A stretch of 64,000 bases of DNA from Bacteroidales bacterium (GTDB lineage Bacteria > Bacteroidota > Bacteroidia > Bacteroidales > UBA12077): positions 28,941-92,940 of the forward strand of contig WTBR01000043.1 of assembly GCA_013138975.1 (NCBI GenBank). Direction: 5' to 3'. Below, one piece after another: positions 11,045-61,200 of the stretch. The notes under the pieces were generated by a model. It saw only the letters and a list, made by a program, of their open reading frames with translations. It did not search any database and was not told where the DNA came from. Position 1 is the stretch's first letter. Every line of letters starts with the position of its first letter. A program made the position numbers and the translations under genes.

Positions 11045-14000
11045 ATGACACAAAAAGAAAGCTCAAGTCATTCTACTACATCCACTAATAAATACGAAAA
11101 AGAAAGAGATTTCTGGTATTCTAAATTTTCTGATGGAGTAATACGAAATATTATACCTTATGATGTGATCGACGAGGTAGATTTATCTTCAAAGTATCTA
11201 ATTGAAGAGTTTGTTCTTAGTCAGGAAATATCAAAAAAACTTTTCTGGTTATCTAATGAATCAGATTATCGTTTATTAATGATATTGATTACAGGAATTA
11301 CCTCACTTCTTAAAAAGTATACAGGAAATAACGATATCACCATTGGAACTTCCATATATAAACAAAAAGTTGACGGGGATTTTATAAATAAGATTTTACC
11401 TATTAGAAATGTCATTAATGACGATGCTACTTTCAAGGATGTGATTATTTTATCAAAGGATAATCTGGAAAATGCAGTATTACACCAAAACTTCCCCATT
11501 GATTCTTTATCAATGAATAATTCAGGGAATGGTCATTTTCTGTTTAACAATGCTGTTTTATTGAAGAATATTCAAAGTGAAAGCTATATCGATCATTTAG
11601 AACTTGATTTACTATTCGCATTCGAAAGGATAAATGACGATATCAAACTTTCGATTAATTATAGTCCTAAATTATATAAAAAATCAACCATCGATAGATT
11701 CTATAGTCATTTCGATGCCTTTATGCAAAAATCCCTGGGTAATATAAATGAACAGTTAAAGGGTATTTCACTTATCACGGTAAAAGAAAAAGAAGATTAT
11801 CTTTTCAATAAAAATACGGGACTTACCCAAGCCCTGGATCATGAAAATATTGTAAGTTGGTTTGAAGATATAGTTGAGCGCTTTCCAAATAACAATGCTG
11901 TTTCCATGGATCAATTTGGAAAAAGTAGTGGTGATATTATTACTGAAAAGAAACTCAATATTACATATAAGGAATTAAATGATAAAGCAAATAATTTGGC
12001 TTATCAGTTAAGAAAAGAAGGATTGAAAGAAGGAAGTACTGTTGGCCTGTTGATGTATCCGGGAATTGAAGTCGCAATAAGTGTTCTGGGGGTTTTGAAA
12101 GCTCGGGGTGTTTATTTGCCGATAGCTGCAGAAACTCCAAATACAAGAATGGAACATATGCTTAAAGATTGCAATGCAGAGTTTCTTGTAGTCGATAAAA
12201 GAGTGGAATCAACTGCCGATGAAATTAAGAATCAAATAGAAAATATAAAGATTATTTCTGTTTGTGATAAAATTGAAGAACTTGGTAATGGCAATCTTGA
12301 TTTGCCTTATTCCAAAGAAGATCCTATTTATGTAATTTATACTTCCGGTTCAATGGGTTATCCTAAAGGAGTTCTTGTAGGAAATTCAGGTTTGATAAAT
12401 TATGTTCAATGGAGAAGAGAAGCATATGAATATAATGAGAAGGATATTTCTTTACAATTGCTGTCCTATAGTTTTGATGGTTTCTATTCTAATTTTTTCA
12501 CCAGTTTACTTACTGGTGGACAGTTAATTATGGTACCTGAGACACACATGCTTGAATTATCGTATTTAAATTCCTTGATCAAAGAAACAGGAGTAAGCAA
12601 TACTAGTCTTATTCCTAGATTGTTCGAGAGTATATTTAACAATCAAAAAGAAAGAGAACTTGAGAGTCTCCGGTTTGTTGTTTTAGCTGGTGAGAAAACC
12701 GACGAAGAATTAAAGGCAGGAATTAGAGAATGTTATCCTAAACTTAAAATCATTAATGAGTTTGGTTTAACCGAAACCAGTGTTACTTCAATTGCAAACC
12801 TTAATTATGCACAGGATGATTCTAATATATTAGGAAATCCAATAAACAATAATACGATATACATTCTTGATAAAGATTTAAACCCAGTACCTAAAGGAAT
12901 TTGCGGCGAATTATATATTTCGGGGATAGGATTGGCAAAGGGGTATTTGAATGAACCTGTTTTAACAGGAGATAGTTTTATAAAGAATCCGTTTAAAGAA
13001 GATACCTTGATGTATAAAACGGGTGATCTTGCTAGTTGGTCTGACGATGATACCATAAGATATTTTGGTAGAAAAGATTACCAGGTAAAAATTCGAGGTT
13101 TTCGAATCGAACTTAGTGAAATTGAAGAATGTATGAAGAAACATCCAATGCTTATGGATGCTTTAGTTATTACAAAAATGAATCATGCCAATGAGAGTCT
13201 GCTTATTGGATATTATGTTTCTAAAAATGGGAAAGAGATAGGCGATTTGACAGATCATCTCCAGGAAATATTATCGGATTACATGATTCCTTCTATTTTA
13301 ATGGAAATAGGTGAATTTCCTAAAAATCAAAGTGGTAAACTTGATTACGGTAGATTGCCTGAACCAAAGATAAGTTCCTTTAACGAATATGTTTCTCCAA
13401 AAACCGATACAGAGAGAAGGTTGGTTTCTATTTGGAGCGAAGTTTTGAATATAGAAGAATCTAAAATAAGTAGTATCGATAATTTCTTCGAGTCAGGAGG
13501 ACATTCCTTAAATGCTACAATAATAATATCTAAAGTTCAAAAAGAATTTAATGTTAAAATTCCAATTATTGATGTTTTTGAATACCCTACCGTTAAATGT
13601 TTTGCTAAAAATTTAGAGGAGAAAAGCAAAAGCACATTTAAATCATTGGAGAAAGCAGTTTCAAAAGATTTTTATCCATTGTCATCCGGTCAGGAACGAT
13701 TATATTTTATTCAGGAAAAACAAAAAAATACCATTGCATATAACATCCCGCTCATATTAAAAATAGAGGGGAGTTTAGATATAAATACGATAGAATCAAT
13801 TTTTAACAAATTGGTCGAAAGACACGAAAGTCTTAGAACCGTATTTGTTATGAATGAAGATCGTCCGGTACAAAAAATTCTGGATCAGCTTAAAATTAAA
13901 ATCGATTGCCTAAAGCACGATCAAATAGATATAATGACTTTAAAAGAGGAATTCGTAAAACCTTTTAATTTAAACGAATCTCCTTTATTCAGAGTGATGC

Positions 14001-14986
14001 TTGTTGAATTAAAAGGAAAGATAGAATACCTGTTTTTTGATATACATCATATTATTACAGATGCTTTATCAATGCAAATTCTGGTTAATGATTTTATCAA
14101 GTGTTTATCGAATATTGAATTACCGCAACTAAAATATCAATACAAAGATTTCTCAGAGAATAGTCTTAATAGAAAAGGTAGCGATTTATTTAAGAAACAA
14201 GAAGAATTTTGGTTGGATCAATATAGAAATTCTTATAACCGACTTAAATTGCCTGTTGATAATGCGAATGTTGAAAATAATTTCATCCCTCAAAAAGCAG
14301 GCTTTATTATTAATAAAACTCAAACCGATAAGTTGAACCAAATTGCAAAAGATAACAATATGTCATTGTTTATCTTGATGCTAGGTATAACGAATGTGTT
14401 TATCTCTAAATTATGTAACCAGGAGGATATTGTAATTGGGATTCCGGTAGCAGGAAGACTTCATGATGATCTTTCTGATATCGTAGGTTTGTTTATTAAT
14501 ACACTTGCTCTTAGGAATAATCCGGCGCAGGAAAAACAGGTCGGGGATTTTCTTAAGGAAGTAAAACAAAACACCTTTAATTGTTTGGAAAACCAAGAGT
14601 ATGATTTTGATATTTTGGTTGATAAGTTGGGAATAAAAAGAGTGGTTGGTCAAAACCCATTAATTGACTTATTCTTTATGTGGGATAATTTTAATTTGCC
14701 TGATATTAAATCAGAAACGGTGAGTTTAACACCGGTTTATTATGAAAATAATAACAAGTTCGATTTATCATTATTGGCTGATGAAAAACCAGATCAGATA
14801 GATTTTACAATAGAATATAATGCTGCTATTTTCAATGAAGACACGATTTTATTTATGACAAAATGGTACACAGATTTAGTGGATTGTATTTTGAATGACA
14901 CTCAAGTCAAAATAAAAGAATTACAGATAGATGCTTTTAGTAAACAAAATGAAAGTAATAGCATCGATATAACTTTTAATGTTTAA
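11045..14986 (+). CDS. NRPS subunit, half-C(C-lobe only)-A-T-C
   Basis: The N-terminal ~255 aa align with the post-His-motif half of C domains (DFWYSKF..., LLKKYTGNNDITIGTSIY..., HQNFPIDSL) but have no HHxxxDG. A domain: YTSGSMGYPKG, NEFGLTETS, GELYISGIGLAKGYL, YKTGDLASW, GRKDYQVKIRGFRIELSEIE, SGKLDYGR. T domain: FFESGGHS. C domain: YPLSSGQERLYFIQ, HHIITDALS. Confidence 0.9.
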   Translation: MTQKESSSHSTTSTNKYEKERDFWYSKFSDGVIRNIIPYDVIDEVDLSSKYLIEEFVLSQEISKKLFWLSNESDYRLLMILITGITSLLKKYTGNNDITIGTSIYKQKVDGDFINKILPIRNVINDDATFKDVIILSKDNLENAVLHQNFPIDSLSMNNSGNGHFLFNNAVLLKNIQSESYIDHLELDLLFAFERINDDIKLSINYSPKLYKKSTIDRFYSHFDAFMQKSLGNINEQLKGISLITVKEKEDYLFNKNTGLTQALDHENIVSWFEDIVERFPNNNAVSMDQFGKSSGDIITEKKLNITYKELNDKANNLAYQLRKEGLKEGSTVGLLMYPGIEVAISVLGVLKARGVYLPIAAETPNTRMEHMLKDCNAEFLVVDKRVESTADEIKNQIENIKIISVCDKIEELGNGNLDLPYSKEDPIYVIYTSGSMGYPKGVLVGNSGLINYVQWRREAYEYNEKDISLQLLSYSFDGFYSNFFTSLLTGGQLIMVPETHMLELSYLNSLIKETGVSNTSLIPRLFESIFNNQKERELESLRFVVLAGEKTDEELKAGIRECYPKLKIINEFGLTETSVTSIANLNYAQDDSNILGNPINNNTIYILDKDLNPVPKGICGELYISGIGLAKGYLNEPVLTGDSFIKNPFKEDTLMYKTGDLASWSDDDTIRYFGRKDYQVKIRGFRIELSEIEECMKKHPMLMDALVITKMNHANESLLIGYYVSKNGKEIGDLTDHLQEILSDYMIPSILMEIGEFPKNQSGKLDYGRLPEPKISSFNEYVSPKTDTERRLVSIWSEVLNIEESKISSIDNFFESGGHSLNATIIISKVQKEFNVKIPIIDVFEYPTVKCFAKNLEEKSKSTFKSLEKAVSKDFYPLSSGQERLYFIQEKQKNTIAYNIPLILKIEGSLDINTIESIFNKLVERHESLRTVFVMNEDRPVQKILDQLKIKIDCLKHDQIDIMTLKEEFVKPFNLNESPLFRVMLVELKGKIEYLFFDIHHIITDALSMQILVNDFIKCLSNIELPQLKYQYKDFSENSLNRKGSDLFKKQEEFWLDQYRNSYNRLKLPVDNANVENNFIPQKAGFIINKTQTDKLNQIAKDNNMSLFILMLGITNVFISKLCNQEDIVIGIPVAGRLHDDLSDIVGLFINTLALRNNPAQEKQVGDFLKEVKQNTFNCLENQEYDFDILVDKLGIKRVVGQNPLIDLFFMWDNFNLPDIKSETVSLTPVYYENNNKFDLSLLADEKPDQIDFTIEYNAAIFNEDTILFMTKWYTDLVDCILNDTQVKIKELQIDAFSKQNESNSIDITFNV

Positions 14987-15008: not shown

Positions 15009-18000
15009 ATGGATATTGTAACCAAAGTTACAGAAGAGTATTGGTTAAGGCGCTTGTCGGGGTTAGATAATAAAGGCGTTTTAGCTAATACAGTTCATTT
15101 TAATAATGGTAATGATTTGGTATTAGGTAATACTTATCAATTGCCAAAGGATACTATTTCCATGTTAAAAAGAATTAGTAATAATTCGGATGTAGGAACT
15201 TATATTATATTATTATCGATATTAAAATACCAGCTCTTTTTATATTCAGGGAAAGGAGATTTTTCTGTAGGCTCTGTTTTCTTTGGTAATAATGCTGAAA
15301 ACAGCGATTATCTTATTTCACGAGAACATATAGATGAAAATTTATTGTTGAGTGATGTGCTTGGCATCGTAAAAAAATCCTATATAGACGATAACAATCA
15401 TCCATACCCATCTTTTCAGAAAATTTATGAAAAACTTTGTCTGAGGGAAGGGCTGAAAAATATAGAATTATTTGATATAGCATTGGTATCAGAAAAACTT
15501 TTCTCAGGGAATAAAGAAGTTTTCAAGAAGTTCAATATCTTAATGATTTTGAAGGAAAATGGGGAAGATTTTTGTATTGATGTTTATTCGAGAAGTGAAG
15601 GTATGGATTTGCAACAAATCCATTATTTCTGTCAAAATTATGTGCAGAATATAAATAACTTTCAAGATAATTATACAAAAAGGATTAAGGATATTGACAT
15701 TCTTGCAGACAGCGAGAAGAAACTTATTCTTTCTGATTTTAATAATACCGATAAAGATTTTCCGAAGAATAAATCTGTTATTGATTTATTTGAAAATCAG
15801 CTTGAAAGAACTCCCGATAAATGTGCTTTAAAATATAATGGAGAAGAACTTTCTTACAGGGAATTGAACGAAAAGGCAAATCAATTAGGGCGTTTATTAC
15901 AGGCTAAAGGTGTTTCTTCCGATATGGTAGTGCCTATTGTTGCTGAGAGATCTTTTGAATTAATTATTGGCTTGTTTGGAATTTTAAAAGCCGGGGGAGC
16001 TTATCTTCCTATCGATACGAAGTATCCAAAGGAAAGAATGCTTTTTTTGGTAAATGAATGTGATGCTAAAATTATTTTAACTACAAAGCAGATAGATCAT
16101 TTTACCGGCACAGATATAGAGTGTATTGATTTAAGAAAACCTGATATTTATACAGGAGATTCGCACAATATATTAAAAGATATAAAGCCTAACCACCTGG
16201 CATATGTAATTTACACCTCAGGTTCTACAGGCAATCCCAAAGGTGTCATGATTGAACATCAGGCCTTGGTAAACAGGCTTAATTGGATGCAAAATCGATA
16301 TCCTATTGGAGTAAACGATGTGATTCTTCAAAAAACATCAATAACATTTGATGTTTCTGTATGGGAATTATTTTGGTGGGCCTTACAAGGATCAACGCTT
16401 AGCTTATTGCCTGTCGATGGAGAGAAAAATCCGGATCTTATACTTAAAACCATTGAAAAGGATAAAGTAACTACCATGCATTTTGTTCCTTCGATGCTAT
16501 CTGTTTTCTTGGATTCTTTGGCTTTTTGTAAGGATATACAAATATTGAAGAGCCTTAAATATGTCTTTTCAAGTGGCGAAGAGTTAAAAGCCTTTCATGT
16601 CAATAATTTTCATGATTTAATATCCAAAGAAACAGGAGCAAAACTTATAAACCTCTATGGTCCCACAGAAGCAACTGTCGATGTTAGTTATTATGATTGC
16701 CAAAGTGATTTGACATATGGGAAAGTACCAATTGGTAAACCAATAGATAATATAAACTTGATGATACTGGATAAACAATTCAAACATGTACCGATTGGCG
16801 TAATGGGTGAATTGTGTATTGCAGGAACAGGTTTAGCACGGGGCTACTTGAAAAACGAAGAATTTACTAAGGAAAAGTTTATTGATGATTCTAAACTAAT
16901 AAATAAACGATTTTACAGAACAGGTGATTATGCCAAATGGAGAACCGATGGAAATATTGAGTTTTTAGGACGAATCGATAATCAATTTAAAATAAGAGGA
17001 TTTAGGGTTGAGATAGGGGAGATAGAGCGAAATATAAGAGAGCATGATTCAATCAAAGAAGTTATTGTTGTACCTCGCACAAACAAAAAAGAGGAAAAAC
17101 AATTATTCACATATTATATTCCTCATAATGAAAAAGAAATAGACGCATCTAAGATAAAAGCTTATTTGTCAGCTAAGCTACCGGCTTATATGATCCCGGA
17201 TATTTTTATTAAAATTGATAAAATTCCATTGACATTGAATGGGAAAGTAGATGTTAAATTACTTCCCGATAGCATAATATCTGAGCTTGAATATGCTCCT
17301 CCTAGAGATGAACTACAGGTAAATTTGGCTAAAATATGTGCCGAAGTATTGGAATCAGATTGGAAGAAGATAGGTATTAATGACAGTTTTTTTATGCTTG
17401 GAGGTAATTCAATAAAGATAATTTCCTTATTACATAAAATAAAAAAGAGATTTAATGTAGACTTGTCCATTGATACCATTTTTGATTATGATACAATAGA
17501 AAAACTTTCGGAACTGATAACAGAAGGAAGTGAAAAAAGAATTGATTCCATTGTTAAAGTAGAAAAGAAAGATTATTACCCGCTGTCATCTGCTCAGAAA
17601 AGATTATTTATTATTCAAAATACATTTAAAGATAATATTGGCTACAATATGTTAAGTGCTTTTGAAATTATGTCTGTAATTGTTCTGGAAAAAGTGCAAT
17701 CTATTTTCGATATCATACTTCAACGACATGAAAATTTAAGAACTTCATTCCGGATTATAGATGGAATACCAGTACAGGTAATTCATGATAAAATCGATTT
17801 AAAGATCGAATTTATTACTGGGGTGAAGGACATTGCAAAAGAAATATCTGATTTTGAAAAACCTTTTAATTTATTGAAGGATAATTTATTGAGAGTTCGA
17901 ATTATTAATACCACAAGTAATAAAAACTTTCTTTTATTAGATATGCATCATATAATTTCAGATGGTTTATCTAATGGCATATTCCAAAACGAATTTATAG

Positions 18001-18899
18001 CTCTTTACAATAAGCAAAAGCTCCCCGGTTTGTTGTTACAATATAAAGATTATTCAAATTGGGAACAAAAATTTGTATCTGGCCAAAGCTATAAAAAACA
18101 AGAATTATTTTGGTTTAATCAGTTCGATGAAAATCCTGAATACAGCCATATCCCATTTGATTTTAAACGACCTGCAATACAAAGTTACGAAGGTGCATCT
18201 GTATTCGAATTGATTGAAAATAATCAGTTGGATAGTTTGAAAAAAATTGCTGCAGACAATAAACTTTCTCTTTATATCCTTCTTCTGTCAATCGTTAATA
18301 TCTTGTATTCGAAAAAAACAGATACCGGTGAAGTAAGCCTTGGTACTATAGTGCATGGGAGAAATCATCCGGATTTGGAAAATGTAATGGGGCAGTTTAT
18401 AAACTTATTGGTGATTAAAAGTTCTGTGGATAAAGACTTGGGATTCCGGGAACATTTATTAGAAACAAAAAGAGTAGTATTAAATTATTTCAATAATCAA
18501 CAATTTCATTTTGAGCGCCTTGTTGAGAAAAAATATACCAAAAGAGACATGGCGATGACTCCATTCTTCAACACCTTATTTACTTATGAAAATAAGGATG
18601 AAATTGGTGGTTTGGATAATGATATTCTTAGTCCTTATGATCAAAATATCCATAAAACAAATTTTGATATCATTATTACCATTAAAGAAAAAATGGAAGG
18701 ATTGAATATTCGATTCGATTATTGTACCAAGATATATAAAAAGGAAACGATTTTACAGCTATTGTTTAATTTCAAAGAAGTTATAAATGCTGTTGTAGAG
18801 AACAATAACATTCAAATAGAAGATATAGCCATAGACAAGAACTTAAATGACATTGAGGAGAATGCATTTCTTAATGAAAGTGATGATTTTCAATTTTGA
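15009..18899 (+). CDS. NRPS subunit, half-C-A-T-C (A domain Ser-like code)
   Basis: The N-terminal ~240 aa are a C-lobe-only region (EEYWLRRL...). A domain: YTSGSTGNPKG, FDVSVWELFWW, NLYGPTEATVDVS, GELCIAGTGLARGYL, YRTGDYAKW, GRIDNQFKIRGFRVEIGEIE, LNGKVDVK. T domain: FFMLGGNS. C domain: YYPLSSAQKRLFIIQ, HHIISDGLS. It ends ...SDDFQF. Confidence 0.9.
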   Translation: MDIVTKVTEEYWLRRLSGLDNKGVLANTVHFNNGNDLVLGNTYQLPKDTISMLKRISNNSDVGTYIILLSILKYQLFLYSGKGDFSVGSVFFGNNAENSDYLISREHIDENLLLSDVLGIVKKSYIDDNNHPYPSFQKIYEKLCLREGLKNIELFDIALVSEKLFSGNKEVFKKFNILMILKENGEDFCIDVYSRSEGMDLQQIHYFCQNYVQNINNFQDNYTKRIKDIDILADSEKKLILSDFNNTDKDFPKNKSVIDLFENQLERTPDKCALKYNGEELSYRELNEKANQLGRLLQAKGVSSDMVVPIVAERSFELIIGLFGILKAGGAYLPIDTKYPKERMLFLVNECDAKIILTTKQIDHFTGTDIECIDLRKPDIYTGDSHNILKDIKPNHLAYVIYTSGSTGNPKGVMIEHQALVNRLNWMQNRYPIGVNDVILQKTSITFDVSVWELFWWALQGSTLSLLPVDGEKNPDLILKTIEKDKVTTMHFVPSMLSVFLDSLAFCKDIQILKSLKYVFSSGEELKAFHVNNFHDLISKETGAKLINLYGPTEATVDVSYYDCQSDLTYGKVPIGKPIDNINLMILDKQFKHVPIGVMGELCIAGTGLARGYLKNEEFTKEKFIDDSKLINKRFYRTGDYAKWRTDGNIEFLGRIDNQFKIRGFRVEIGEIERNIREHDSIKEVIVVPRTNKKEEKQLFTYYIPHNEKEIDASKIKAYLSAKLPAYMIPDIFIKIDKIPLTLNGKVDVKLLPDSIISELEYAPPRDELQVNLAKICAEVLESDWKKIGINDSFFMLGGNSIKIISLLHKIKKRFNVDLSIDTIFDYDTIEKLSELITEGSEKRIDSIVKVEKKDYYPLSSAQKRLFIIQNTFKDNIGYNMLSAFEIMSVIVLEKVQSIFDIILQRHENLRTSFRIIDGIPVQVIHDKIDLKIEFITGVKDIAKEISDFEKPFNLLKDNLLRVRIINTTSNKNFLLLDMHHIISDGLSNGIFQNEFIALYNKQKLPGLLLQYKDYSNWEQKFVSGQSYKKQELFWFNQFDENPEYSHIPFDFKRPAIQSYEGASVFELIENNQLDSLKKIAADNKLSLYILLLSIVNILYSKKTDTGEVSLGTIVHGRNHPDLENVMGQFINLLVIKSSVDKDLGFREHLLETKRVVLNYFNNQQFHFERLVEKKYTKRDMAMTPFFNTLFTYENKDEIGGLDNDILSPYDQNIHKTNFDIIITIKEKMEGLNIRFDYCTKIYKKETILQLLFNFKEVINAVVENNNIQIEDIAIDKNLNDIEENAFLNESDDFQF

Positions 18900-18930: not shown

Positions 18931-21444
18931 ATGAGTAATAAGATTGAAAAATATTGGGAAAACAAGCTTTTTGATTCCAAAGATGCGAACATAGGAATAT
19001 TTTATTCCGGGTATGAGGGTAAGAATAGTATAAATCAAAAAAGATATACTTTACCTTCTTCATTATCCGGAAAAATTAATTCTATATGTAATAAGTCTGA
19101 TTTAAAGCTTTTTACATTTCTTGCTTCAATTACCAATTTGTTATTATTTAATTATTTTAACAGTCCTCGTATTTTATTATTATCTCCTGTAATTCAGCAA
19201 AATACAAATCAGAAATTATTAAACTATATATTGGTTTACCAAAGCGAAATAAAAGCAAATATTTCATTTAAAGACTTTTTGTTATCTGTGTGGAAAGAAA
19301 TTAGTACTTCAACAGAACATCAGAATTTCCCACTTAAAGATTTAATTAAAAAAGCATCTGCTAACATTACTCCTTTAAATGATGTTCGAAATGTTGGAAT
19401 TTTATTGGAGAACATACATTCTAAGTCTTATTTAGGAGATATTCCAAATTTATTATTTTGTTTTAACAAAAAACAGGATGAAATAGAGTGTACAATCGAA
19501 TATAAAAATCAAGCTTTTACAGATACAGCGATTGATAAAATATGGGAATGTTTTACCACTTTAACTACAAATATTTTAAACGATCTTTCTTCAGATATTA
19601 GTCGAATTGATTTAATATCGAAAGAACAAAAAGAAGAGTTTTTATTCGAATTTAACAATACCAATAAAGCAATCGGTGATGATTCTATAGTAGACTATTT
19701 TAATAAACAAGTAGCCCAATTGCCCGATAAGATAGCTGTAATAATGGATAATTTATTTATTACATATAAAGAACTGGGAAAAAGATCAGATCATTTTTCA
19801 GCAGTATTGAATAAAAACGGGCTTGGTACAAATCATATTTGTGCGGTTTATTTAGATAGAAGTATCCATTTTATTATTTCTATTCTTGGTATTCTCAAAG
19901 CAGGAGCAGCTTACTTACCAATGGATAGAGATTATCCGGTAGAACGAATTAAATATATTGTTAAGGATAGTAAGGTAGAGATTGTTATCGTTGATAATGA
20001 GTCCTATAAAGTAGATATAGAATGCAATAAACTTAACATTGAGAAAATAGATTTTAATGCCGCGAATGAAGCTTTACCTGAAATAAATTACAACAAAGAA
20101 AATGCAGCTTATGTAATTTATACATCAGGTTCGACAGGTATTCCCAAAGGGGTAATTATAAAGCAAGAAGGGGTTTTAAATTATGCTTTATGGGCTATTG
20201 ATCATTATATTGGAAACAATGAGATTACTTTTCCATTGTTTACATCCATTTCATTCGATTTAACGGTAACATCAATTTTTACTCCTTTACTGAGTGGTAA
20301 TAAAATAAAAATATACGAAGCCAAACAGAACAGTGCTTTTTTATTGGAGAAAATATTAAAAGAGAATCAAGTCGATATTATTAAAGTTACACCTTCTCAT
20401 CTTCGGTATTTGATTCAATTATATAAGTATAAACCTACTTCAAATAATTCTGATTTCACTTCGAATATCAAAAAAATTATTGTTGGAGGAGAGGATCTTA
20501 AAACTGATTTGGCCAATTCGGTTCTGGATATTTTTGGAAATCATATTGAAATATACAATGAATATGGCCCAACCGAAACAGTAGTTGGAAGCATAATATA
20601 TAAATTTAAGCGAGATGCATATTTGGAATATCAAAGTGTAGCCATAGGTAAACCCATAGCCAATACCAAGGTGTATATCTGTAATAAGTTTGGAGGTATC
20701 ATGGCACAGGGTGTTGAAGGCGAGATTCTTATAGGAGGTAGTGGTGTTAGCATGGGTTATATAAATAAACCAGAAGCAACACATGAAAGATATATTCATC
20801 ATTCGAATAATGGCGAACAGCAATTGTATAAAACAGGCGATAGAGCAAAATGGATAGATTCTGAAAGTATTTTATTTTTGGGACGTTTGGATGAGCAAGT
20901 CAAAATAAGAGGATTTAGAATAGAATTAGGGGAAATCGAAAATACAGCTAAAAATTTTGCAGATATTGATGATTGTAAGGCCATTGTAATTAATGATAAT
21001 GAAAATATTATTGTTTGTGTGATGGCTCAGTCTAAAATTGACCAAAAGGAATTGTCCGATCATTTTAGTCAGTATCTCCCTGAATATATGATACCATCTG
21101 AGATTTACCAGGTAGATAAGATTCCTTTGACCATAAATGGTAAGATAGATACTTCTGAGTTGCTATCGATGAGGCAAACAAAGGAAGTTACGGAAGGATA
21201 TGTTGCTCCAAATAGTAAAACCGAGAAAATCATTTCTGAAATTTGGGGAGAAGAATTGAATATTGCGAAGGTGGGTATCTACGACAATTTTTTTACAATT
21301 GGAGGTACATCATTAAACATGATAAAAGTAAATAGTCGTATTCAGGAAACGCTCGAAAAGCAAATTGAGATTATTCATATGTTTGAATACACAACGATAC
21401 AGTCTTTGTCGGAATTTATAGATAATCAAATGGTTAATAATTAA
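18931..21444 (+). CDS. NRPS subunit, half-C-A-T (A domain Asn-like code), ends in carrier domain
   Basis: The N-terminal region is C-lobe-only (EKYWENKL...). A domain: YTSGSTGIPKG, FDLTVTSIF, NEYGPTETVVGS, GEILIGGSGVSMGYI, YKTGDRAKW, GRLDEQVKIRGFRIELGEIE, INGKIDTS. T domain: FFTIGGTS. There is no downstream C domain and no DFxF tail. Confidence 0.9.
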   Translation: MSNKIEKYWENKLFDSKDANIGIFYSGYEGKNSINQKRYTLPSSLSGKINSICNKSDLKLFTFLASITNLLLFNYFNSPRILLLSPVIQQNTNQKLLNYILVYQSEIKANISFKDFLLSVWKEISTSTEHQNFPLKDLIKKASANITPLNDVRNVGILLENIHSKSYLGDIPNLLFCFNKKQDEIECTIEYKNQAFTDTAIDKIWECFTTLTTNILNDLSSDISRIDLISKEQKEEFLFEFNNTNKAIGDDSIVDYFNKQVAQLPDKIAVIMDNLFITYKELGKRSDHFSAVLNKNGLGTNHICAVYLDRSIHFIISILGILKAGAAYLPMDRDYPVERIKYIVKDSKVEIVIVDNESYKVDIECNKLNIEKIDFNAANEALPEINYNKENAAYVIYTSGSTGIPKGVIIKQEGVLNYALWAIDHYIGNNEITFPLFTSISFDLTVTSIFTPLLSGNKIKIYEAKQNSAFLLEKILKENQVDIIKVTPSHLRYLIQLYKYKPTSNNSDFTSNIKKIIVGGEDLKTDLANSVLDIFGNHIEIYNEYGPTETVVGSIIYKFKRDAYLEYQSVAIGKPIANTKVYICNKFGGIMAQGVEGEILIGGSGVSMGYINKPEATHERYIHHSNNGEQQLYKTGDRAKWIDSESILFLGRLDEQVKIRGFRIELGEIENTAKNFADIDDCKAIVINDNENIIVCVMAQSKIDQKELSDHFSQYLPEYMIPSEIYQVDKIPLTINGKIDTSELLSMRQTKEVTEGYVAPNSKTEKIISEIWGEELNIAKVGIYDNFFTIGGTSLNMIKVNSRIQETLEKQIEIIHMFEYTTIQSLSEFIDNQMVNN

Positions 21445-23654: not shown

Positions 23655-23705
23655 TCTTAAGAAATAGATAATTAAAGATATAACAAATAATTTAAGAGAA
23701 ATAGA

Positions 23706-48052: not shown

Positions 48053-48096
48053 CCTGCCCGCCGAATAATGTGCTAAGGCAGGTGGGAATGACGGAG

Positions 48097-48218: not shown

Positions 48219-48248
48219 GGTAAATATGCAAGACCTGTTAGTTTTTTT

Positions 48249-48297
48249 TAGATTAAGGGCTAAAGTCCAATGTTCTATACTTTTGTATTCCGCCATA
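48249..48297 (+). repeat. repeat family C, copy 2
   Basis: See copy 1 at 48004-48052. There are a few substitutions between the two copies. Confidence 0.8.
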
Positions 48298-48335
48298 ATT
48301 TTGTTAGAGCAAATAATGAAAAATGAAACCAAATA

Positions 48336-51189: not shown

Positions 51190-54100
51190 ATGCAAGAGAG
51201 TATTTCGTCAGATAAAACAATCATATCATATCAGCAAAAAAATGAAAGAGATTTTTGGTTGGATAAATTGGCTGATTATGAAACAAAAAAGGGTATAGGC
51301 TTAAGGCTCGATGTTATAACTGAGAATGTAGTAGGGCAAGATTCAGTAAAATTATTATTTGATTCAGAAGCAAGCAGTAAAATAAATGGCTTGGTAAGTA
51401 ATTCAAGTCATAAGCTACACATATTTTTAACAGCCGTATTAACAGAGTTATTGCATCGATATACAGGCGACGAAGATATTATTATAGGTACACCTATTTA
51501 CAAACAGGATCAGGAGGGAGATTACATAAACACGGTGCTGGCCTTGCGGGCAAAAATAGAAAAAGGACTATGTTTTAAAGATCTTTTACTGAAAGTAGTA
51601 AGACCTACTGTTGTAGAAGCTGTAAAACATCAGAATTACCCATTTGAGAGTTTACTCCATCAATTAGATTTAGGAGCATTAGATGGAATTAATCCTTTGT
51701 TTGATGTAGCCATATTATTAGATAATATTCAAGAAAAAAGCTATTTAGATCATGTTCCCGTTCGATTGTTATTTAAATTCAATAATAGTTCAGAGGGTCA
51801 GGTATCCTGCGAATTAGAATATGACACATCCGTAATAAGTAAATCTTTTGCAAGCAATTTATTGGTTCATTATGAGTTTTTAGCAAAACAATTCATAGGC
51901 AATTTAACAGTACCTATGGATGATCTGGCAATGCTTTTACCCGCAGAACGAAAGCAGATCTTAGAAGATTTTAATTCAACAGAACATACTTATCCATCAG
52001 AAGAATCAGTTGATGAATTATTTAGAGAAACAGCTACATTATATAAAGACAAAATAGCACTAAAATATAATGGACATCATTTAACTTACGGAGAATTAGA
52101 TCAAGAATCAAGCAAGTTAAGTAGCTATCTACAAAAACAAGGAGTAGAAAAGGGAGAACCTGTAGGGATCATGATTGGTCATAGTGTAGAGATGATCGTA
52201 GGTTTATTGGGAATCTTAAAATCAGGAGCAATTTATTGTCCAATTAATATTGATTATCCCGAAGAGCGCAAACGAAGTCTTCTAGCAGATAGCGATATAC
52301 GCTTTTTACTATGCAATGATTTAGAATATAAGAATGATGCTGTAACGAAGATTGATTTGACATCAATAGAGTTTAATCAGGAAGAATTAGCTGAGGTATC
52401 AACGCATACAGGTCAGGATGCCTGTTATATAATGTACACTTCAGGATCAACCGGTCAACCAAAAGGAGTTATCATAAATCATCAAAATGTAGTTCGATTA
52501 GTAAAGAATACGAATTTTGTAAATTTTAATTCCGATTACCGCATATTACAAACAGGTGCATTAGAGTTTGACGCTTCAACATTCGAACTATGGGGATCTT
52601 TATTAAATGGAGGTACCTTATACCTGGAAGATAAGTACACAATCATAAACAATAAAAAACTAAAAAGCACACTAGAGAAAAATTCAATAAACACCATCTG
52701 GATGACTGCCCCCTTATTTAACCAGATGTTAGATACAGACATATCCATTTTTAAGAACCTCGATCATTTACTGGTTGGAGGAGATGTATTATCAACAAAA
52801 CATATTAATAAATTACGTGAATCATATCCCGGAATAAAAGTAACAAATGGTTATGGGCCTACAGAAAACACGACATTTTCAACAACACATGAAATTACTA
52901 AACAGTATAAAGGGAATAACATTCCGATAGGAAAACCCATAAATAATTCCACAGCTTATATATTAGATCATAAAGAAAATATTTTACCACCGGAAGTTCC
53001 GGGAGAATTATATGTAGGAGGAGACGGAGTAGGTTTAGGATATCTGAATAATCCCGAATACACACACGAAAAATTTATAGAACTTCCGGATTTTACGGGA
53101 CAAAGATTCTATAAAACAGGAGATAAGGCCTTATGGCTTTCCAATGGAGACATCTCGTTTGTAGGAAGAATAGACAATCAGGTAAAAATTCGAGGTTACC
53201 GAATAGAACCGGGAGAAGTTGAGAGTGTAATCACTTCCGATAATGAAGTAAAAGAATCGATAGTAATAGTTAAGGAAAGTGATGATGGAGAAAAATATTT
53301 ATGTGCTTATTTGGTAGGAGAAAGTGATCTAATAATTTCAGACCTGAAAATTCGCTTGCAAAATAAGTTACCGGACTATATGCTACCTACTTATATAGTA
53401 AAACTTGATAAATTTCCATTAACCACCAATGGAAAGATTGATAAGAAATTATTGCCGGAACCTGAAATAGAATTAGGAAAAGAACTTATTGCCCCAAGAA
53501 ACCGAATTGAAAAAGAACTATTAGAAATTTGGTCGGAATTATTGAGCCTTGAAAAAGAACATATAGGGATTGACTCCAACTTTTTTGAATTGGGAGGACA
53601 TTCACTGAAAGCTACTTTATTAACATCACAAATACACAAAGCCTTAAATGTAGATGTATCCCTTTCAGAGGTATTTAAGAATCAAACAATTCGGGAACTA
53701 TCTTTAGTATTGGAGTCATCAGCAGAAGGATTTTACAAATCCATAAGTCGAGCACCTGAACAAGCATATTATGATCTATCCTCAGCCCAAAAGCGACTTT
53801 ACGTTTTGGAACAAATGGAAAGCCTTTCTACAAGCTATAATGTGCCAATGGCCTTTACCTTGGAAGGGAAAGTTAACGTAGAAAAGATAGAGCATGCATT
53901 GCAGCAACTGGTTCAACGACATGTAAGTTTACGAACATCCTTTACCTTGGTAGATCAAGTTCCCAAACAAAAAATTGAAGAACATGTAGAATTGCCAATT
54001 CGCTTTTACGATGAGTCTGATGTAAATGCAGAAGAATTGATAAAGGATTTTGTGCAAGCATTTGATTTAAGCAAGGCTCCTTTAATGCGTGTAGGTCTGG

Positions 54101-57100
54101 CAAAACTGGGTGAGGAGAAATACTTGTTTTTGATCGATATGCATCATATCATTACCGATGGTACTTCGGTGGCAATCACCTTGAAAGAATTTATGCAGCT
54201 TTATTCCGGTTTAGAATTAAAAACCAAACCAATACAGTATACTGATTTTTCAGAATGGCAAAATAAGCTATTAAAATTAGAGGAAATAAATAAGCAAAAG
54301 CATTTTTGGGAGAAGGAATTTGAGGAAGAAATCTCAGTATTAGAGCTACCAAATGATTATTCTCGTCCAATAGTTCAAAGCTACGAAGGAGATAGCCATA
54401 ATTTTGAACTCGACACTGAAATAACCGAGAAACTACAGCAAATATGCGCACAAGAAGGCAAAACCATGTTTATGCTTTTACTTGCAGCATATAATGTATT
54501 ATTATCAAAACTTAGTAATCAGGATGATATTGTTGTAGGATCACCAATTGCAGGAAGACGTCATGCCGATTTAGAGAACACAGTAGGGATGTTTATAAAT
54601 ACACTGGTATTAAGAAACTTTCCTTCCGGAGATAAAACATTTAAAAGTTTCTTAAATGAAGTAGGCGAAAAAACCTTAAATGTATTTGAAAATCAAGAGT
54701 ATCAGTTTGAAGATTTGGTTGGGCAATTAGCCTTGAGTAAAGATACCAGCCGTAATCCAATTTTTGATGTGGCATTTTCTTTTCATAATGAATCTGCGCC
54801 GGGGCGAATTGAACACATAAAAACTCCCGGATTAACATTACGACCGTACAATACGAATAATACTACAATAAAATTTGATCTGACTTTAAGCGCAACAAGC
54901 AAAAAAGATAAATTATTATTAAGTTTTCAGTATTGTACAAAGTTATTTAAAAAGGAAACAATAGAACGTTTTACGGAATCTTACATAAATATTCTGGAAG
55001 CAATAAGTACAGATATTAACCAGTCTCTATTTAAAATAGATATTATCTCCGATAAGGAAAAACAGTGGATATTAGAACAGCAAAACAATACATCGGTACA
55101 ATATCCTGAAAACAAATTATTACATACACTATTTGAAGAACAGGTAGAAAAAAGGGAACATAAGGTAGCGGTAAAATTTGGCGATGAGCATATTACTTAT
55201 CGCGAACTGAATAATAGGGCGAATCACTTAGGACATACGCTTCGAAAAAGGGGAATAGAACCGGGTAGTATTGTTGGACTCATACAAGACAAGTCAATTG
55301 AAATGTTGATATCTATTCTCGGTGTTTTAAAAGCAGGAGCTGGTTATTTACCAATAAATCCATCGTATCCTCAAGAGAGAATCGAATTTTTAATAAATGA
55401 TTCAAATGCAGCTATAGTTGTTGTATCAGAAACCACAAAACAAAAGTACACTGAAAAGCAGATTAATATATCAGATTTAAGCGATGAAGAAGTAAGTATA
55501 TCAAACTTAAAAACAGATCAATCTCCAGAAAGTTTAGCGTATATCATATATACTTCGGGTACTACAGGTAAACCTAAAGGAGTAATGATAAATCATAAAA
55601 ATGTAGTTCGTTTATTATTTAACGATTCGGAACTCTTTGATTTTAATGACCAAGATGTTTGGAGTATGTTTCATGCCTATAATTTTGATTTTTCGGTATG
55701 GGAAATATATGGAGCATTACTTAAGGGCGGAGAGTTAGTTGTTTTTAACGATTCGGAGGTTAAGGATGCAAGCGTAGTTACAGAAAAAATAATCAAAGAA
55801 AACATTACAGTTCTAAATCAAACACCAGCTTCGTTTTATAATTTACAGTATAGCAACGATAATATATTAAGTAAAAAGCTTCAATTACGTTATGTTATTT
55901 TTGGAGGTGATGCATTAATTTCTTCTAAGCTAAAAGAATGGAAAGAATATTTTCCGGGGATAAAATTTGTAAATATGTATGGCATAACAGAAACAACAGT
56001 TCATGTCACATATAAGGAAATAGGCGATGAAGAGATAAAGGGAAATAAAAGTAATATAGGTAAATCAATACCAACTTTATCTACATATATTTTAGACGAA
56101 AGGCAAGGAGTATTGCCCATAGGAGTTGGAGGTGAAATATGTATTAGTGGTGCCGGAACGAGTGTTGGATATTTGAATAATCCGGAATTAACAAACGAAA
56201 AATTTATACCCAATCCATATCAACAAGGAGAGCGCCTTTATAAATCGGGAGATAAGGGAAGGATACTGAAAAATGGAGACATAGAGTATTTAGGTCGTAT
56301 CGATCAACAGGTTAAAATTAGAGGATACAGAATAGAATTAGGAGAAATAAATTCTTATTTATCAGGCTATGATCAAATAAAAAAGTCTGTTGTAGGTGTA
56401 ATTCCAATGAACGAAGAAAAAGCCTTGGTGGCTTACTTTATATCATCCGGGAAAATAGCATCCGACCAGCTAAAAAAATATCTATTAGGAAGTCTTCCTG
56501 AATATATGATTCCGACTTATTTTATTCAAGTAGAAAATATTCCTTTAACAAGCAATGGTAAAGTGGATTGGAAATCTTTACCCGAACCCGATATTAAGAT
56601 AAAAGAACAATATGAAGAAGCTACAAGTACAGCAGAATTAAAGATTTTGGAGATTTGGGCTAATGTTTTAAATATTGATAGTTCTGCAATTAGTGTAAGC
56701 GAAAGTTTCTTTAAAATTGGAGGTAACTCGCTAAATGCTAATCAGGTAGTTTTAAAGATTCATCAAAGTTTAAATGTAAAATTACCTTTAACAGATTTGT
56801 TTCGATTCCAAACCATAAGGGAGCTGGCACAAAGATTAAATCAGTATAAAACCGAAGATTTTATATTGATGAAAAATACAGAAAAGAAAGAATACTACAA
56901 TATTTCACCGGCACAAAGAAGATTATACCTTCTTCAGCAAATGGCTGCAAATAATATTACGTATAATTTACCGCAGTTAATAAAATTAAATTTTGAACTT
57001 GATGTTAAAAAAGTTGAGGAAGTATTTATAAAACTAATTAATAGACATGAATGTTTTAGAACTTCATTTCATGTAATTAATGGAAAAATTGTTCAGCGAA

Positions 57101-58221
57101 TTAACGAAGAATCTAAAATTGAAATTGATTTTTATGATATTAAATCGACAAATAAGGAAGCAATAATTTCAAACTTTATTAAACCTTTTGATATTTCTAA
57201 ATCACCCTTAATAAGACTTAGCATAATCAAAGAAAATACGAATAGTTATATACTTTTGATTGATATGCATCATATAATTTCCGATGAAGTATCTCAGGAA
57301 TTATTAATGAAAGAATTTAACTTATTGTACAATAACGAATCGCTGAGTAAGCAAAAATTACAATACAAAGATTTTGCAGAATGGTTTTGTTCTGAAAATA
57401 GCGTGAATATATTGGAAAGTGAAGAGAAATTTTGGTTGGATATGTACAAGGATAATATTCCAATACTTAATTTGCCAATAGATAATTTAAGAGATAAGGA
57501 TGTGTTTTCATCAGGGGATAAAAAGAATTATTTTATCGATGATCAACTTGCTGCGAAAATAAAAGACTTAGCAATAAAAAAAGAGTGTTCAATAAATAAT
57601 TTACTTTTTAGTATTTATTTTATTCTTCTCGCAAAATTATCTGGTCAAGATGATCTTGTTATAGGAACAGTTGCCTCCGGTCGAAAACATGTAGATTTAA
57701 TAAACATAATTGGCTTTTTTGTAAATATGCTGGCGATAAGAAATAAACCTGCCGGTAATAGAAAATTCAGTGTGTTTTTAAACGAAGTGACTAATAATTA
57801 TTATTCGGCTATTGATAATCAGAATTACCAATTTGATGAATTAATCGATAAACTTAAAATCACCAGAACCGAAAATCGTAATCCTTTGGTTGATGCCGTT
57901 TATGTTTTTAAAGACAGTTCGGATGTTTTTATAGAAAGCAAAGAAACGTTAAATGAAGATAAATTAGACTTTAACATATCGCATTTTGATATTATGTTTT
58001 ATTTAACTGAATATAAGAATAGTATGCGTATTTCAGTTGAGTATAGCACAAAATTATTCTCCGAAAAGACAATTGATAATATGGCAAGTTCTTATATAAA
58101 ACTATTAGAACAGATTGTTGAAAATGAGGACATTACTATTGATGAATTACAGATTGTTGATGATTTTAAATCAACAACTACTGATATAGAATCACTTAAT
58201 CAAATTGAATTCGAATTATAA
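51190..58221 (+). CDS. bimodular NRPS, half-C-A-T-C-A-T-C (Val-like and Thr-like codes)
   Basis: The N-terminal region is C-lobe-only (RDFWLDKL...). Module 1: A1 has [61 protein letters not shown]. T1 is FFELGGHS. The first C domain has [16 protein letters not shown] and HHIITDGTS. Module 2: A2 has [59 protein letters not shown]. T2 is KIGGNS. The final C domain has [15 protein letters not shown] and HHIISDE at 57268-57288. It ends ...QIEFEL. Confidence 0.9.
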   Translation: [2343 protein letters not shown]

Positions 58222-58234
58222 GAATTAAGATAAA

Positions 58235-61200
58235 ATGAAGAATAGAACATTATCGCAAGTATCATTATCATCATCAAAATATACTAAAGAAAAGGACTTT
58301 TGGTTAAAATTCTTTTCTGGTGTAAAAAGTAAAAACGCTATTGTAGGATTAATTGATACTAACAACAATAATACTGAAAGTGTATTCGAAAAAATACAAA
58401 TCTCTTTTGAATCCAATCTTTGTAATGGAATAAATAAGATATGTAAAAACTCGGATAATACTTTACACATATTTTTAACAGCCGTATTAACAGAATTATT
58501 GCATCGATATACTGGCGATGAAGATATTATTATAGGTACACCAATTTACAGGCAGGATCAGGAGGGAGACTATATAAATACAGTACTTGCAATACGATCG
58601 AAGATAGAAAAAGGGCAAAGCTTTAAAGATCTTTTACTGAAGGTAGTAAGACCTAATGTTATAGAATGTATCAAACATCAGAATTACCCATTTGAGAGTT
58701 TACTCCATCAATTAAATTTAGGAGCATTAGATGGAATTAATCCCTTATTTGATGTAGCCATATTATTAGATAATATACAAGAAAAGAGCTATTTAGATCA
58801 TATTCCTAAGCGATTGTTATTTAAATTCAATCATAGTTCAGAGGGGCAAGTGTCCTGTGAATTAGAATATGACGCATCGGTAATAAGTAAATCTTCGGCA
58901 AGCAATTTATTGCTTCATTATGAGTTTTTAGCAAAACAATTAATAAGCAATATAGCAGTACCCATGGATGATCTGGCGATGCTTTTACCCGCAGAACAAA
59001 AGCAGGTTATAGAAGATTTTAATTCAACAGAAAATACTTATCCATCGGAAGAATCCGTTGACAGTTTATTTAGAGAAACAGCTGCATTAAATAAAGACAA
59101 AGTAGCACTAAAATATAATGGACATCATATAACTTACCGAGAATTAGATCAACGTTCAAGCCAGTTAAGTAGCTATTTGCAAAAACAAGGAGTAGAAAAG
59201 GGAGAACCTGTAGGGATCATGATTGGTCATAGCGTAGAGATGATTGTTGGTTTATTAGGAATCTTAAAATCAGGAGGAATTTATTGTCCAATTAATATTG
59301 ATTACCCGGAAGAACGCAAACGAAGTCTTCTAGCAGATAGCAATATACGCTTTTTGCTATGCAAGGATTTAGAATTTAAGAATGATGCTGTAACGAAGAT
59401 TGATTTGACATTAATAGAGTTGAATCAGGAAGAATTTGCAGAGGTATCAAAGCATACAGGTCAGGATGCTTGCTATATTATGTATACTTCAGGATCAACA
59501 GGACAACCAAAAGGAGTTATCATAAATCATCAAAATGTAGTTCGATTAGTAAAGAATACGAATTTTGTAAATTTTAATTCCGATTACCGCATATTACAAA
59601 CAGGTGCATTGGAGTTTGATGCTTCAACATTCGAACTTTGGGGATCCTTATTAAATGGAGGTACCTTATACCTGGAAGATAAGTACACAATCATAAACGA
59701 TCAAAAACTAAAAAGTACACTAGAGAAAAATTCAATAAACACCATCTGGATGACTTCCCCATTATTTAACCAGATGTTAGATACAGACATTTCCATTTTT
59801 AAGAACCTCGATCATTTATTAGTTGGAGGAGATGTATTATCAACTAAACATATTAACAAGTTACGTGAATCTTATCCCGGAATAAAAGTAACAAATGGTT
59901 ATGGACCTACAGAAAACACGACATTTTCAACAACACATGAAATTACAAAACAGTATAATGGAAATAACATTCCAATTGGAAAACCCATAAATAATTCCAC
60001 AGCTTATATAATAGATCATAAGGAACATATTTTACCACCTGAAGTTCCGGGAGAGTTGTATGTAGGTGGCGATGGAGTAGGATTAGGATATTTGAATAAT
60101 CCTGAATACACACACGAAAAATTTATAGAACTGCAAGATCTTCCGGGACAAAGATTTTATAAAACAGGAGATAAGGCCTTATGGCTTTCCGATGGAGAAA
60201 TCTCGTTTTTAGGAAGGATCGACTATCAGGTAAAAATTCGCGGTTACCGCATAGAACCGGGAGAAGTTGAAAGTGTAATCACTTCCGATAATGAAGTAAA
60301 AGAATCATTAGTAATAGTTAAGGAGAATAACGAAGGAGAAAAATATTTATGTGCCTACCTGGTAGGAGAAAGTGACCTGGAAATTTCAGACCTGAAAATT
60401 CGCTTGAAAGATAGCTTACCGGACTATATGCTACCTACTTATATAGTTAAGCTTGATAAATTTCCATTAACCACCAATGGAAAGATAGATAGAAAATTAT
60501 TGCCAGAACCTGAAATAGACTTTGGAAAAGAACTTATTGCCCCAAGAAACCCAACTGAAAAAAGACTATTAGAAATATGGTCAGAATTATTAGGTATTGA
60601 AAAAGAAAATATCGGAATAGATTCAAATTTTTTTGAATTAGGAGGACACTCATTGAAAGCAACATTACTGACCTCCCAAATATATAAGATATTAAATGTT
60701 GAGTTGCCACTTTCGGAGATATTTAAAAATCAAACAATCCGAGAACTGTCTTTAGTATTGGAATCATCAGCAGAAGGATTGTATAAATCAATAAGTCAAG
60801 CCCCGGTTCAGTCATATTATGCACTTTCATCAGCTCAAATGCGGCTTTATATTTTGGATCAAATGGATATGACTTCCACAAGTTATAATATTCCCATGGC
60901 TTTTATATTAGAAGGCGACATCGATTTAAAAAAGCTGATAAACACATTACAAAAGCTGGTAAAAAGACATGCCGCTTTACGTACATCCTTTGTTCAGGTA
61001 GATCAAATTCCCAAACAAAGAATAGCGGAAGATGCAGAATTGCAGGTAAAATATTATTCAGAATCTACAGTCACACCAAGGGAATTATTTTCTGATTTTG
61101 TACAAGCCTTTGATTTGAGTCAGGCACCCTTAATGAGGGTAAGCCTTGTAAAACAGAATGAAGGGCAATATTTATTTATGATAGATATGCATCATATCAT

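Follow-up and report, generated by a model that had tools for sequence, protein, structure and literature searches.

C-lobe-only condensation domains and acidic-aromatic C-terminal tails at subunit junctions of a Bacteroidales NRPS/PKS cluster

C-lobe-only condensation domains at subunit N-termini

We analyzed a 64,000-nucleotide stretch of contig WTBR01000043.1 (positions 28,941 to 92,940 of the forward strand; hereafter the window) from the Bacteroidales assembly GCA_013138975.1. It carries a low-GC (~31%) cluster of nonribosomal peptide synthetase (NRPS) and polyketide synthase (PKS) genes, all on the + strand, and one of its proteins, of 3,944 amino acids (aa), is identical to NOQ25399.1 from a Bacteroidales metagenome-assembled genome (MAG). 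Our subject is the domain that opens six of the cluster's subunits, which consists of only the C-terminal lobe of a condensation (C) domain and which we call hC (half-C), together with the subunit boundaries at which it lies and a short C-terminal tail found on proteins encoded upstream of it. Domain mapping of the window proteins, each named here by the start of its gene, gave the following architectures, where A denotes adenylation, T thiolation (carrier), E epimerization, KS ketosynthase, and AT acyltransferase: p1049 is Cstarter-A-T-C; p11045 and p15009 are both hC-A-T-C; p18931 is hC-A-T; p24549 is a PKS module, KS-AT-T-C; p29415 is hC-A-T-C/E-like-A-T-C-A-T-C, with a radical S-adenosylmethionine (SAM)/cobalamin (B12) insert in its first A domain; p41453 is A-T-C, its A interrupted by AT; p51190 is hC-A-T-C-A-T-C; and p58235 is hC-A-T-C-A-T. 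Among the subunit genes lie three genes for B12-radical-SAM enzymes, one for a protein resembling peptidase family U32, one for a methyltransferase, and several of unknown function.

A sequence-only reading of the window had proposed that six subunits open with a C-lobe alone and lack both the N-terminal lobe and the HHxxxDG motif, and profile and alignment evidence bears this out. Over the first 300 aa of p11045, p15009, p18931, p29415, p51190, and p58235, the Condensation family PF00668 is the sole Pfam match (hmmscan), beginning at profile positions 186–196 and ending at 454–456 of 456 (E 3e-8 to 2e-26), and all six regions score above the family's gathering score of 30.6 bits. The individual hCs lie at 11045–11830 (p11045; PF00668 187–454, E 1.8e-21), 15009–15743 (p15009, the most divergent member; 194–455, E 3.3e-8), 18931–19656 (p18931; 196–455), 29415–30188 (p29415; 190–456, E 1e-20), 51190–51969 (p51190; 188–456, E 6e-23), and 58235–59014 (p58235; 186–454, E 2.4e-26), and the A domain begins at aa 257–277. 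When aligned with the cluster's twelve full C domains, all six start just past core motif C4, at YWxxxL, and none contains the N-lobe or HHxxxD; the (D/E/N)(F/Y)W motif cited in the earlier reading is this YWxxxL, which follows C4, and not C4 itself. With profile positions ~187–456 only and no His motif, hC departs from the two-lobed pseudo-dimer of the Condensation superfamily. In-frame stops lie 0–16 codons upstream of all six subunit starts (3 codons upstream for p15009, immediately upstream for p18931), so that no hidden or restorable N-lobe precedes them and mis-called starts are ruled out. Judged by these alignments, each of the six N-termini is a catalytically dead, C-lobe-only condensation domain. 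Modeled with AlphaFold2 (AF2), the hC of p58235 is predicted to adopt a confident fold, with per-residue confidence (pLDDT) above 90 over aa 20–260.

The window hCs, including that of p11045, form one clade; they share 24–31% identity among themselves and ~20% with the C-lobes of the cluster's full C domains, which indicates that they are not recent truncations of their neighbors. For the pair p51190/p58235, dN/dS is 0.16 over hC aa 77–257, with values of 0.13, 0.13, and 0.14 for A, T, and C. Relative to hC, internal C-lobes are ~21 residues longer, in the latch and floor-loop regions, and the alignment places the shortening of hC at ~15–20 residues at the latch position and ~6 in the floor-loop/C5 region. 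Latch and floor loop, whose structural role in C domains has been described (PMC11186497), are the two parts of a normal C domain that reach over to the N-lobe, and both are trimmed in hC. The domain thus appears adapted to existence without an N-lobe, and loss of the latch and shortening of the floor loop argue against its being one half of a split C domain. Its family consensus reads KExxYWLxKLSG ... KYTGNxDIIxGxPIYKQ ... ENQNYPxExL ... FPLFDxAxLLENIHDxxYL. Together, the alignments and substitution rates indicate that hC is a distinct family under selection.

We searched 1.84 billion representative proteins with an hC profile and examined a set of 152, comprising the best 150 together with the two matches returned by a word-indexed protein search with a single hC as query. 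Fifty-three of these proteins begin with an hC, 35 of which also end in a full C domain. Scanning genome contigs with a single hC returned no loci; a 12-member alignment of database hCs yielded loci, and the 36 from the genome scan all belong to MAGs, assigned to Aminicenantes/Acidobacteriota, Deferrimicrobium, Halanaerobiales, Clostridia, Lutisporaceae, Bacillota, and Bacteroidales. Against the hC profile, N-terminal hCs score a median of 190–198 bits (56 + 50 examples) and internal C-lobes a median of 72–81 bits (661 + 54 examples), with an internal maximum of 119 bits in the loci and 124 among database proteins; one larger value, from a summary range, is untraced. Among the database proteins and loci scanned, no domain of the hC type occupies an internal position (about 100 hCs from uncultivated bacteria, all N-terminal).

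Database names extend the distribution to Kapabacteria, Omnitrophota, and Abyssisolibacter fermentans (hC-starting NRPS WP_066496038.1), the last a named species with a RefSeq genome and probably cultured. In Brevibacillus laterosporus P0249, an orphan 221-aa hC-type open reading frame (ORF; L037:10001–10666) has no NRPS nearby, and an HTH_Tnp_1 transposase-like gene lies a few genes away; the ORF probably remains from a cluster that was transferred. A protein of Paenibacillus sp. RC73 (P0058; WP_404591406.1) contains C-halfC-A three times in one polypeptide (aa 931–1648, 2249–2966, and 3567–4288). Its half-C is of a different type, with a low hC-profile score and a latch-like insert retained, and it provides a precedent for a full C domain, an extra C-lobe, and an A domain in one chain.

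The C-to-hC junction and the acidic-aromatic tail

Seven subunits end in a C domain that covers profile positions 2–446/450 and contains HHxxxD, so the description of these domains as complete, also made in the sequence-only reading, is confirmed. They lie at 4199–5569 (p1049), 13655–14983 (p11045), 17559–18896 (p15009), 27612–28976 (p24549), 39912–41246 (p29415), 44582–45934 (p41453), and 56878–58218 (p51190). Five of these subunits carry a short acidic-aromatic tail at the extreme C-terminus, ..PDSDFRF in p1049, ..ESDDFQF in p15009, ..EEADFDF in p24549, ..NQIEFEL in p51190, and the W-type ..VEEDWDI in p41453; the tail of p11045 is weak (..IDITFNV), and p29415 has no aromatic tail (..SLVEDLE). 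In place of HHxxxDG, all terminal C domains but that of p15009 (six of seven; p1049, p11045, p24549, p29415, p41453, and p51190) read HHxxxD(E/A/L), and every internal C domain of the window has HHxxxDG. Loss of the G does not hold up as a general feature of the terminal ones; in related loci, DG is present in 22/34 terminal and 20/26 internal C domains.

Within the window, six tailed C-ending subunits precede the six hC subunits one to one (6/6 junctions). The order is strictly co-linear and runs p1049, three enzymes, p11045, p15009, and the T-ending p18931; the KS-starting p24549 and p29415; and p41453, four genes, p51190, and p58235. Intergenic gaps measure 13–31 nt at three of the junctions. 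The untailed p29415 precedes p41453, which lacks an hC, and is the only C-ending subunit not followed by one. The same arrangement recurs in related loci from several phyla, where an hC-starting NRPS ORF comes after each of 34 C-ending ORFs, 27 of the 34 with a tail; where an untailed ORF ends in an E-like domain, the next ORF starts with a full C domain (3/3). Of 47 hC starts in these loci, 24 lie within 400 bp of a full-C-ending ORF, and most of the others are separated by one or two genes from such an ORF, which lies ~2 kb upstream. Since hC had been the bait for the initial loci, we also took a sample that did not depend on it, of ten radical-SAM homologues located on long contigs. Each of the ten loci contains the triad of an NRPS/PKS ORF with a terminal full C domain and a tail, one or more tailed enzymes, and an hC-starting ORF, and their hCs score 170–228 bits. 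The subunit junctions are therefore as the sequence-only reading drew them, and hC marks a non-canonical boundary at which a module is split between C and A, ...T-C-tail] + [hC-A-T....

The tail is not confined to synthetases. C-ending subunits, B12-radical-SAM enzymes, and U32-like enzymes share the motif [DE][FW]x[FLIM]-COOH, encoded in the window at 5555–5569, 7543–7557, 8749–8763, 10772–10786, 18882–18896, 28962–28976, 45920–45934, 50986–51006, and 58204–58218. The tailed enzymes are a B12-binding radical SAM enzyme (p5854; 5854–7557, ..SNGDFAF), the U32-like protein (7603–8763, ..DKEDFNF), a second type of B12-binding radical SAM enzyme (8954–10786, ..DQGDFNF), and a further B12-binding radical SAM enzyme directly 5' of the hC subunit p51190 (49333–51006, ..TEDFEFDL). 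In other loci, the tailed genes that lie between a C-ending and an hC-starting subunit likewise encode B12-radical-SAM and U32-like proteins, as assigned by Pfam; tailed U32-like homologues of ~390–410 aa stand beside the radical-SAM gene upstream of hC in the window and at L022:2645–3847, L042:4752–5939, and L047:4679–5932. In the p5854 family, 111 of the 120 closest cluster representatives have [FW]x[FLIMV] as their very last residues and 117 have the motif within three residues of the end, with the consensus (D/E)(D/E)GDFxF. In related loci, position -4 of the tail is D/E in 24/32 cases, -3 is F/W in 30/32, -2 is variable, and -1 is F in 27/32 or else L/I/M.

A survey for N-terminal C-lobe-only domains and their co-occurrence with tails, as the sequence-only reading had suggested, linked the tail to the complete terminal C domain: the strict motif ends 28/79 full-C-ending proteins of the database set and 0/73 others. 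The last 17 aa of p15009 have a pLDDT of ~32 behind a complete C domain (AF2 model, predicted TM-score [pTM] 0.80), and a tail region of about 10–20 residues is predicted to be disordered, with the conserved motif of 4–5 residues at its extreme C-terminus. As an alternative origin, we considered that the tail is a remnant of the C-A linker "DFNxT", which has a similar spacing after C; this is disfavored by the presence of the same tail on radical-SAM and U32 enzymes, which argues for a portable motif.

Tails of synthetases and enzymes that share a junction resemble each other. Across 21 junctions, synthetase and enzyme tails have 49 identical residues at positions -4 to -1, compared with 37.8 expected from shuffled pairings (p about 6e-5). 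Concordance holds at -2 and -1 alone (p about 4e-5) and is significant in both of two independent subsets (p 0.0002 and 0.006); concordant pairs include SDFVF/GDFVF, VSFGF/ATFGF, RGFRL/GDFLL, HDFEL/GDFDL, and EEWNM/SEWL. Such concordance is what a shared, co-varying receptor would produce.

An adaptor role for hC and its alternatives

We lean, by a modest degree, towards reading hC as a non-catalytic adaptor at the C|A split of a module, probably one that receives the tails, with tail binding inferred. In the mechanism we propose, the normal C-A linker would hold hC to its own A domain, much as it holds the C-lobe of an ordinary C-A platform, and hC would offer a landing pad for [DE][FW]x[FLIM]-COOH tails. 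Docking of a synthetase tail would keep the upstream C domain near enough that the downstream carrier could gain access in trans to that domain's acceptor site, and docking of an enzyme tail would bring radical-SAM and U32 tailoring enzymes to the module's carrier-bound substrate. The tail would be a largely generic anchor with some junction-specific variation, and further specificity would come from domain-domain contacts. The radical-SAM/B12 unit embedded in an A domain of p29415 and of one ORF of L040 would be a fused counterpart of this trans arrangement, since insertion into the A domain next to hC puts the enzyme at the position that it would take up by docking its tail to hC. More tentatively, and with rather less confidence than we attach to the adaptor itself, hC may be the receptor of a portable tail code that joins C|A-split NRPS/PKS modules and recruits B12-radical-SAM and U32-like enzymes, which would constitute a fourth docking class with junction-specific addressing.

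The idea of half-C domains as docking or recruitment modules was already put forward in the sequence-only reading. The pairing rule, the nearly invariant tails of the radical-SAM enzymes, and the tail concordance support it well by correlation; covariation between hC and tail is not significant. That reading also drew on p51190 and p58235, described as recent duplicates with a divergent segment of ~75 aa, taken to encode partner specificity, ahead of ~1000 nearly identical aa. At the DNA level, the two genes are homologous from nt 227/230 (aa ~76) to nt ~5150, at 81.6% identity, and the proteins share 24% identity over aa 1–50, 82–98% over aa 100–850, and 45–90% beyond, so the near-identity of what follows was overstated. 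Pairwise identity among hCs is 0.30 in the N-terminal 76 aa versus 0.40 in the rest, and ordinary C-lobes show the same trend, at 0.28 in the corresponding segment versus 0.33. Because the aa ~76 boundary is the left edge of the duplication tract, a single event, and ordinary C-lobes are also more variable there, we draw no conclusion about specificity from this segment.

Several observations weigh against the adaptor reading. Comparison of hC columns with tail class (W versus F at -3; F versus non-F at -1) gave no significant association after multiple-test correction (best p 7.8e-4 in 201 tests); the columns that came closest, aa 110 and 119 of p58235, flank the shortened floor loop, which is no more than a hint. 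Tail concordance could also stem from local sequence copying or shared junction ancestry, and the tail receptor could be the A domain, the T domain, or the upstream C domain itself. Four tails (p1049, p5854, p7603, and p8954) precede the single hC of p11045; with tails outnumbering hCs, binding would have to be competitive or multi-site. About 8/35 C-to-hC junctions, about a fifth, carry no recognizable tail; one locus (L021) has a tailed stand-alone C domain followed by an ORF without hC, and in another (L011) the 10 kb upstream of the hC subunit contain no NRPS gene. Structurally, the AF2 model of hC-A reaches a pTM of 0.57, and in Foldseek comparisons it fits C-A didomains no better than does A alone (TM 0.52–0.54, rmsd 15–18 Å), so a canonical hC:A platform is not demonstrated.

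The strongest competing explanation, which we nonetheless think unlikely, holds that hC is a structural partner of the A domain only, serving its folding, activity, or selectivity in the manner of the C* domain of ACV synthetase (ACVS), and that the tails dock or act elsewhere. C*, which consists of a C-lobe alone and opens initiation modules, is known from ACVS module 1 (PMC7884236) and ThdA (PMC7253712), where it precedes A without an upstream C domain and has been proposed to support A. In anatomy, the level at which we compared them, hC resembles C*: both are isolated, non-catalytic C-lobes directly before A, with no N-lobe and no HHxxxDG. Other features of hC also fit a partnership with A. 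It has a match in the N-terminal part of the Lys2 model TIGR03443 (E 1e-9 to 1e-10), its linker to A retains the canonical LSxEEKxxLLxxFNxT, and every complete NRPS-type A domain in the window sits directly behind a C-lobe, whether of a full C or an hC, with the AT-interrupted AMP-binding domain of p41453 as the exception; the L011 subunit, with no upstream NRPS gene, points the same way. What this explanation leaves unaccounted for is the restriction of hC to junctions after a tailed full C domain, the tailed enzymes immediately upstream of hC genes in 10/10 sampled loci, and the junction-wise similarity of the tails. Whereas C* stands in a first module with no C domain before it, all six window hCs and those at 34 junctions elsewhere follow a full-C-ending subunit, and whereas no docking tail or enzyme recruitment has been described for C*, hC occurs six times in one cluster alongside a conserved tail. 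A platform role for A can, moreover, be compatible with docking, as a second role of hC.

Much less probable is that the hC subunits are independent initiation modules, with the terminal C domains off-loading or inactive and the cluster making several short products. C* domains are indeed known from initiation modules, 6/7 terminal C domains of the window have HHxxxD(E/A/L), and terminal C domains can release products, as do fungal CT domains and amine-releasing C domains. Yet the terminal domains keep HHxxxD, and the loss of G is not general; subunits pair one to one across gaps as short as those at the three close junctions; the junction rule recurs across phyla; and a fused C-halfC-A exists in Paenibacillus. 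Seven release domains in a single cluster would also be implausible. The last explanation, that half-C domains are non-functional recombination relics or artefacts of mis-called starts or frameshifts, could draw on recombination inside C domains being a known route of NRPS evolution, on the left edge of the 51190/58235 duplication falling inside hC, and on the orphan Brevibacillus remnant, but it is effectively refuted by conservation and selection: dN/dS is on par with that of catalytic domains, more than 100 examples from several phyla have a Met start at the same position and a well-conserved consensus, in-frame stops lie directly upstream of the starts, and the elements that cross between lobes are trimmed in an adaptive-looking way.

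The adaptor reading invites comparison with known docking systems. A 2021 review lists COM, PAX, and beta-hairpin/short linear motif (SLiM) classes, all at T|C or E|C junctions (PMC9113145). One parallel is SLiM/beta-hairpin docking, as in TubC, rhabdopeptide Kj12, and enacyloxin Bamb_5915, where, as proposed here, a short disordered C-terminal peptide binds a folded N-terminal domain, and where the receptor, like the proposed hC, accepts tails of several partners including tailoring enzymes (PMC9113145). On the donor side, the likeness extends to the predicted disorder of the p15009 tail. The receptors differ, in that the beta-hairpin domain has ~60 aa arranged alpha-beta-beta-alpha-alpha and lies at T|C, T|Cy, and E|C junctions whereas hC, the presumed receptor, is a 250-aa C-lobe at C|A, and the motif [DE]FxF-COOH differs from the SLiM tails of beta-hairpin docking. 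Consistent with this, hmmscan against Pfam found no TubC_N in the six hC N-termini, even at E up to 1. TubC_N beta-hairpin docking domains are present in two related loci (L040 and L041), so the beta-hairpin and hC-type systems coexist in related clusters. The COM arrangement, in which a donor helix behind an E or T domain pairs with a full C domain's N-terminus, does not apply, as the donor here is a C domain and hC lacks the N-lobe, the site of the COM acceptor "hand" (PMC9113145). The BN domain of TomB, a PCP-like adaptor at a subunit N-terminus, resembles hC in being a degenerate copy of an NRPS domain in that position and mediates inter-subunit recognition, but it stands ahead of a full C and acts at a T|C junction, where its partner is the donor PCP, whereas hC is a C-lobe before A (PMC11186497).

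Two further systems involve C-domain-derived parts, and the sequence-only reading had likened hC to one of them, the X-domain. The glycopeptide X-domain, reportedly shown by Haslinger and colleagues in 2015, is a dead condensation-derived domain that recruits several trans-acting tailoring enzymes to a peptide bound to the carrier. As a functional analogy the likeness stands; structurally it does not, since the X-domain is two-lobed and lies after the last T and before the thioesterase (TE) domain, whereas hC is single-lobed, N-terminal, and before A. The X-domain binds P450s through the P450 surface, whereas hC is proposed to bind C-terminal tails; recruitment of trans-acting enzymes by hC is inferred from gene adjacency and shared tails. 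The XUC exchange units of Bozhueyuek and colleagues (2019) are said to consist of CAsub-A-T-CDsub. The N-terminus of hC coincides with the inter-lobe linker, the XUC cut point, and hC-A-T corresponds to CAsub-A-T. XUC joins two half-domains into a working C domain, whereas here the upstream C is complete and hC has no latch, which marks hC as an extra lobe and not as half of a split C domain. In open-access papers and bioRxiv, we found no description of the C-to-hC junction, the tail, or A domains interrupted by radical-SAM units. Both C* domains and docking through tails have precedents; their combination here looks undescribed.

Should the docking reading hold, a recurrent natural C|A split with a C-lobe adaptor and a five-residue tail would add a docking class to those of NRPSs, one that would be widespread in uncultivated anaerobes. 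It would supply a compact, possibly orthogonal tag for splitting megasynthetases at the recombination point favored by XUC, would account for the targeting of cobalamin-dependent radical-SAM enzymes to particular modules, and would make radical-SAM chemistry on carrier-bound amino acids testable. The rule that a tailed C-ending subunit is followed by an hC-starting one offers a simple means of ordering subunits in uncharacterized clusters of Aminicenantes, Clostridia, Bacteroidales, and relatives, and Abyssisolibacter fermentans, for hC, and the Paenibacillus strains, for the fused variant, provide experimental entry points.

Neighboring genes and interrupted adenylation domains

Five small ORFs (173, 217, 324, 217, and 201 aa) at 23133–24356 and 46046–48938 match no Pfam family and no NCBIfam family at its curated cut-off, and none of the five carries the aromatic tail; the N-terminus of p46046 is a hydrophobic, membrane-like segment. 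The U32-like protein has a weak NCBIfam match to TrhP, and U32-family proteins include prephenate-dependent tRNA hydroxylases. Two tailed B12-radical-SAM enzymes of related loci (L001:8035–9951 and L017:8045–9889) have a CDGSH iron-sulfur zinc-finger domain added at the N-terminus. T-ending NRPS subunits in five related loci (L008, L014, L023, L027, and L029) bear strongly basic tails, for example RLRQMRNMRKRRTS and GKNRLKQRRQKLRK, which suggests a second, different docking code in the same clusters.

Two A domains of the window are interrupted. The first A domain of p29415 is split by a radical-SAM and B12-binding unit (30720–32200, aa ~437–930) inserted between AMP-binding profile positions ~130 and 131, in the a2-a3 region, and the architecture recurs in one ORF of L040; radical-SAM inserts go unmentioned in a catalogue of interrupted A domains from 2020 (PMC8341866). 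In p41453, aa 1–810 (41453–43900) comprise an AMP-binding domain split by a KS-AT-linker-like segment and a complete acyltransferase domain, in the order AMP-binding profile 4–236, CurL-like/RhiE-like linker, AT, AMP-binding 246–384. By its domain order, this N-terminus is a putative AT-interrupted adenylation or fatty acyl-AMP ligase (FAAL)-like loading domain.

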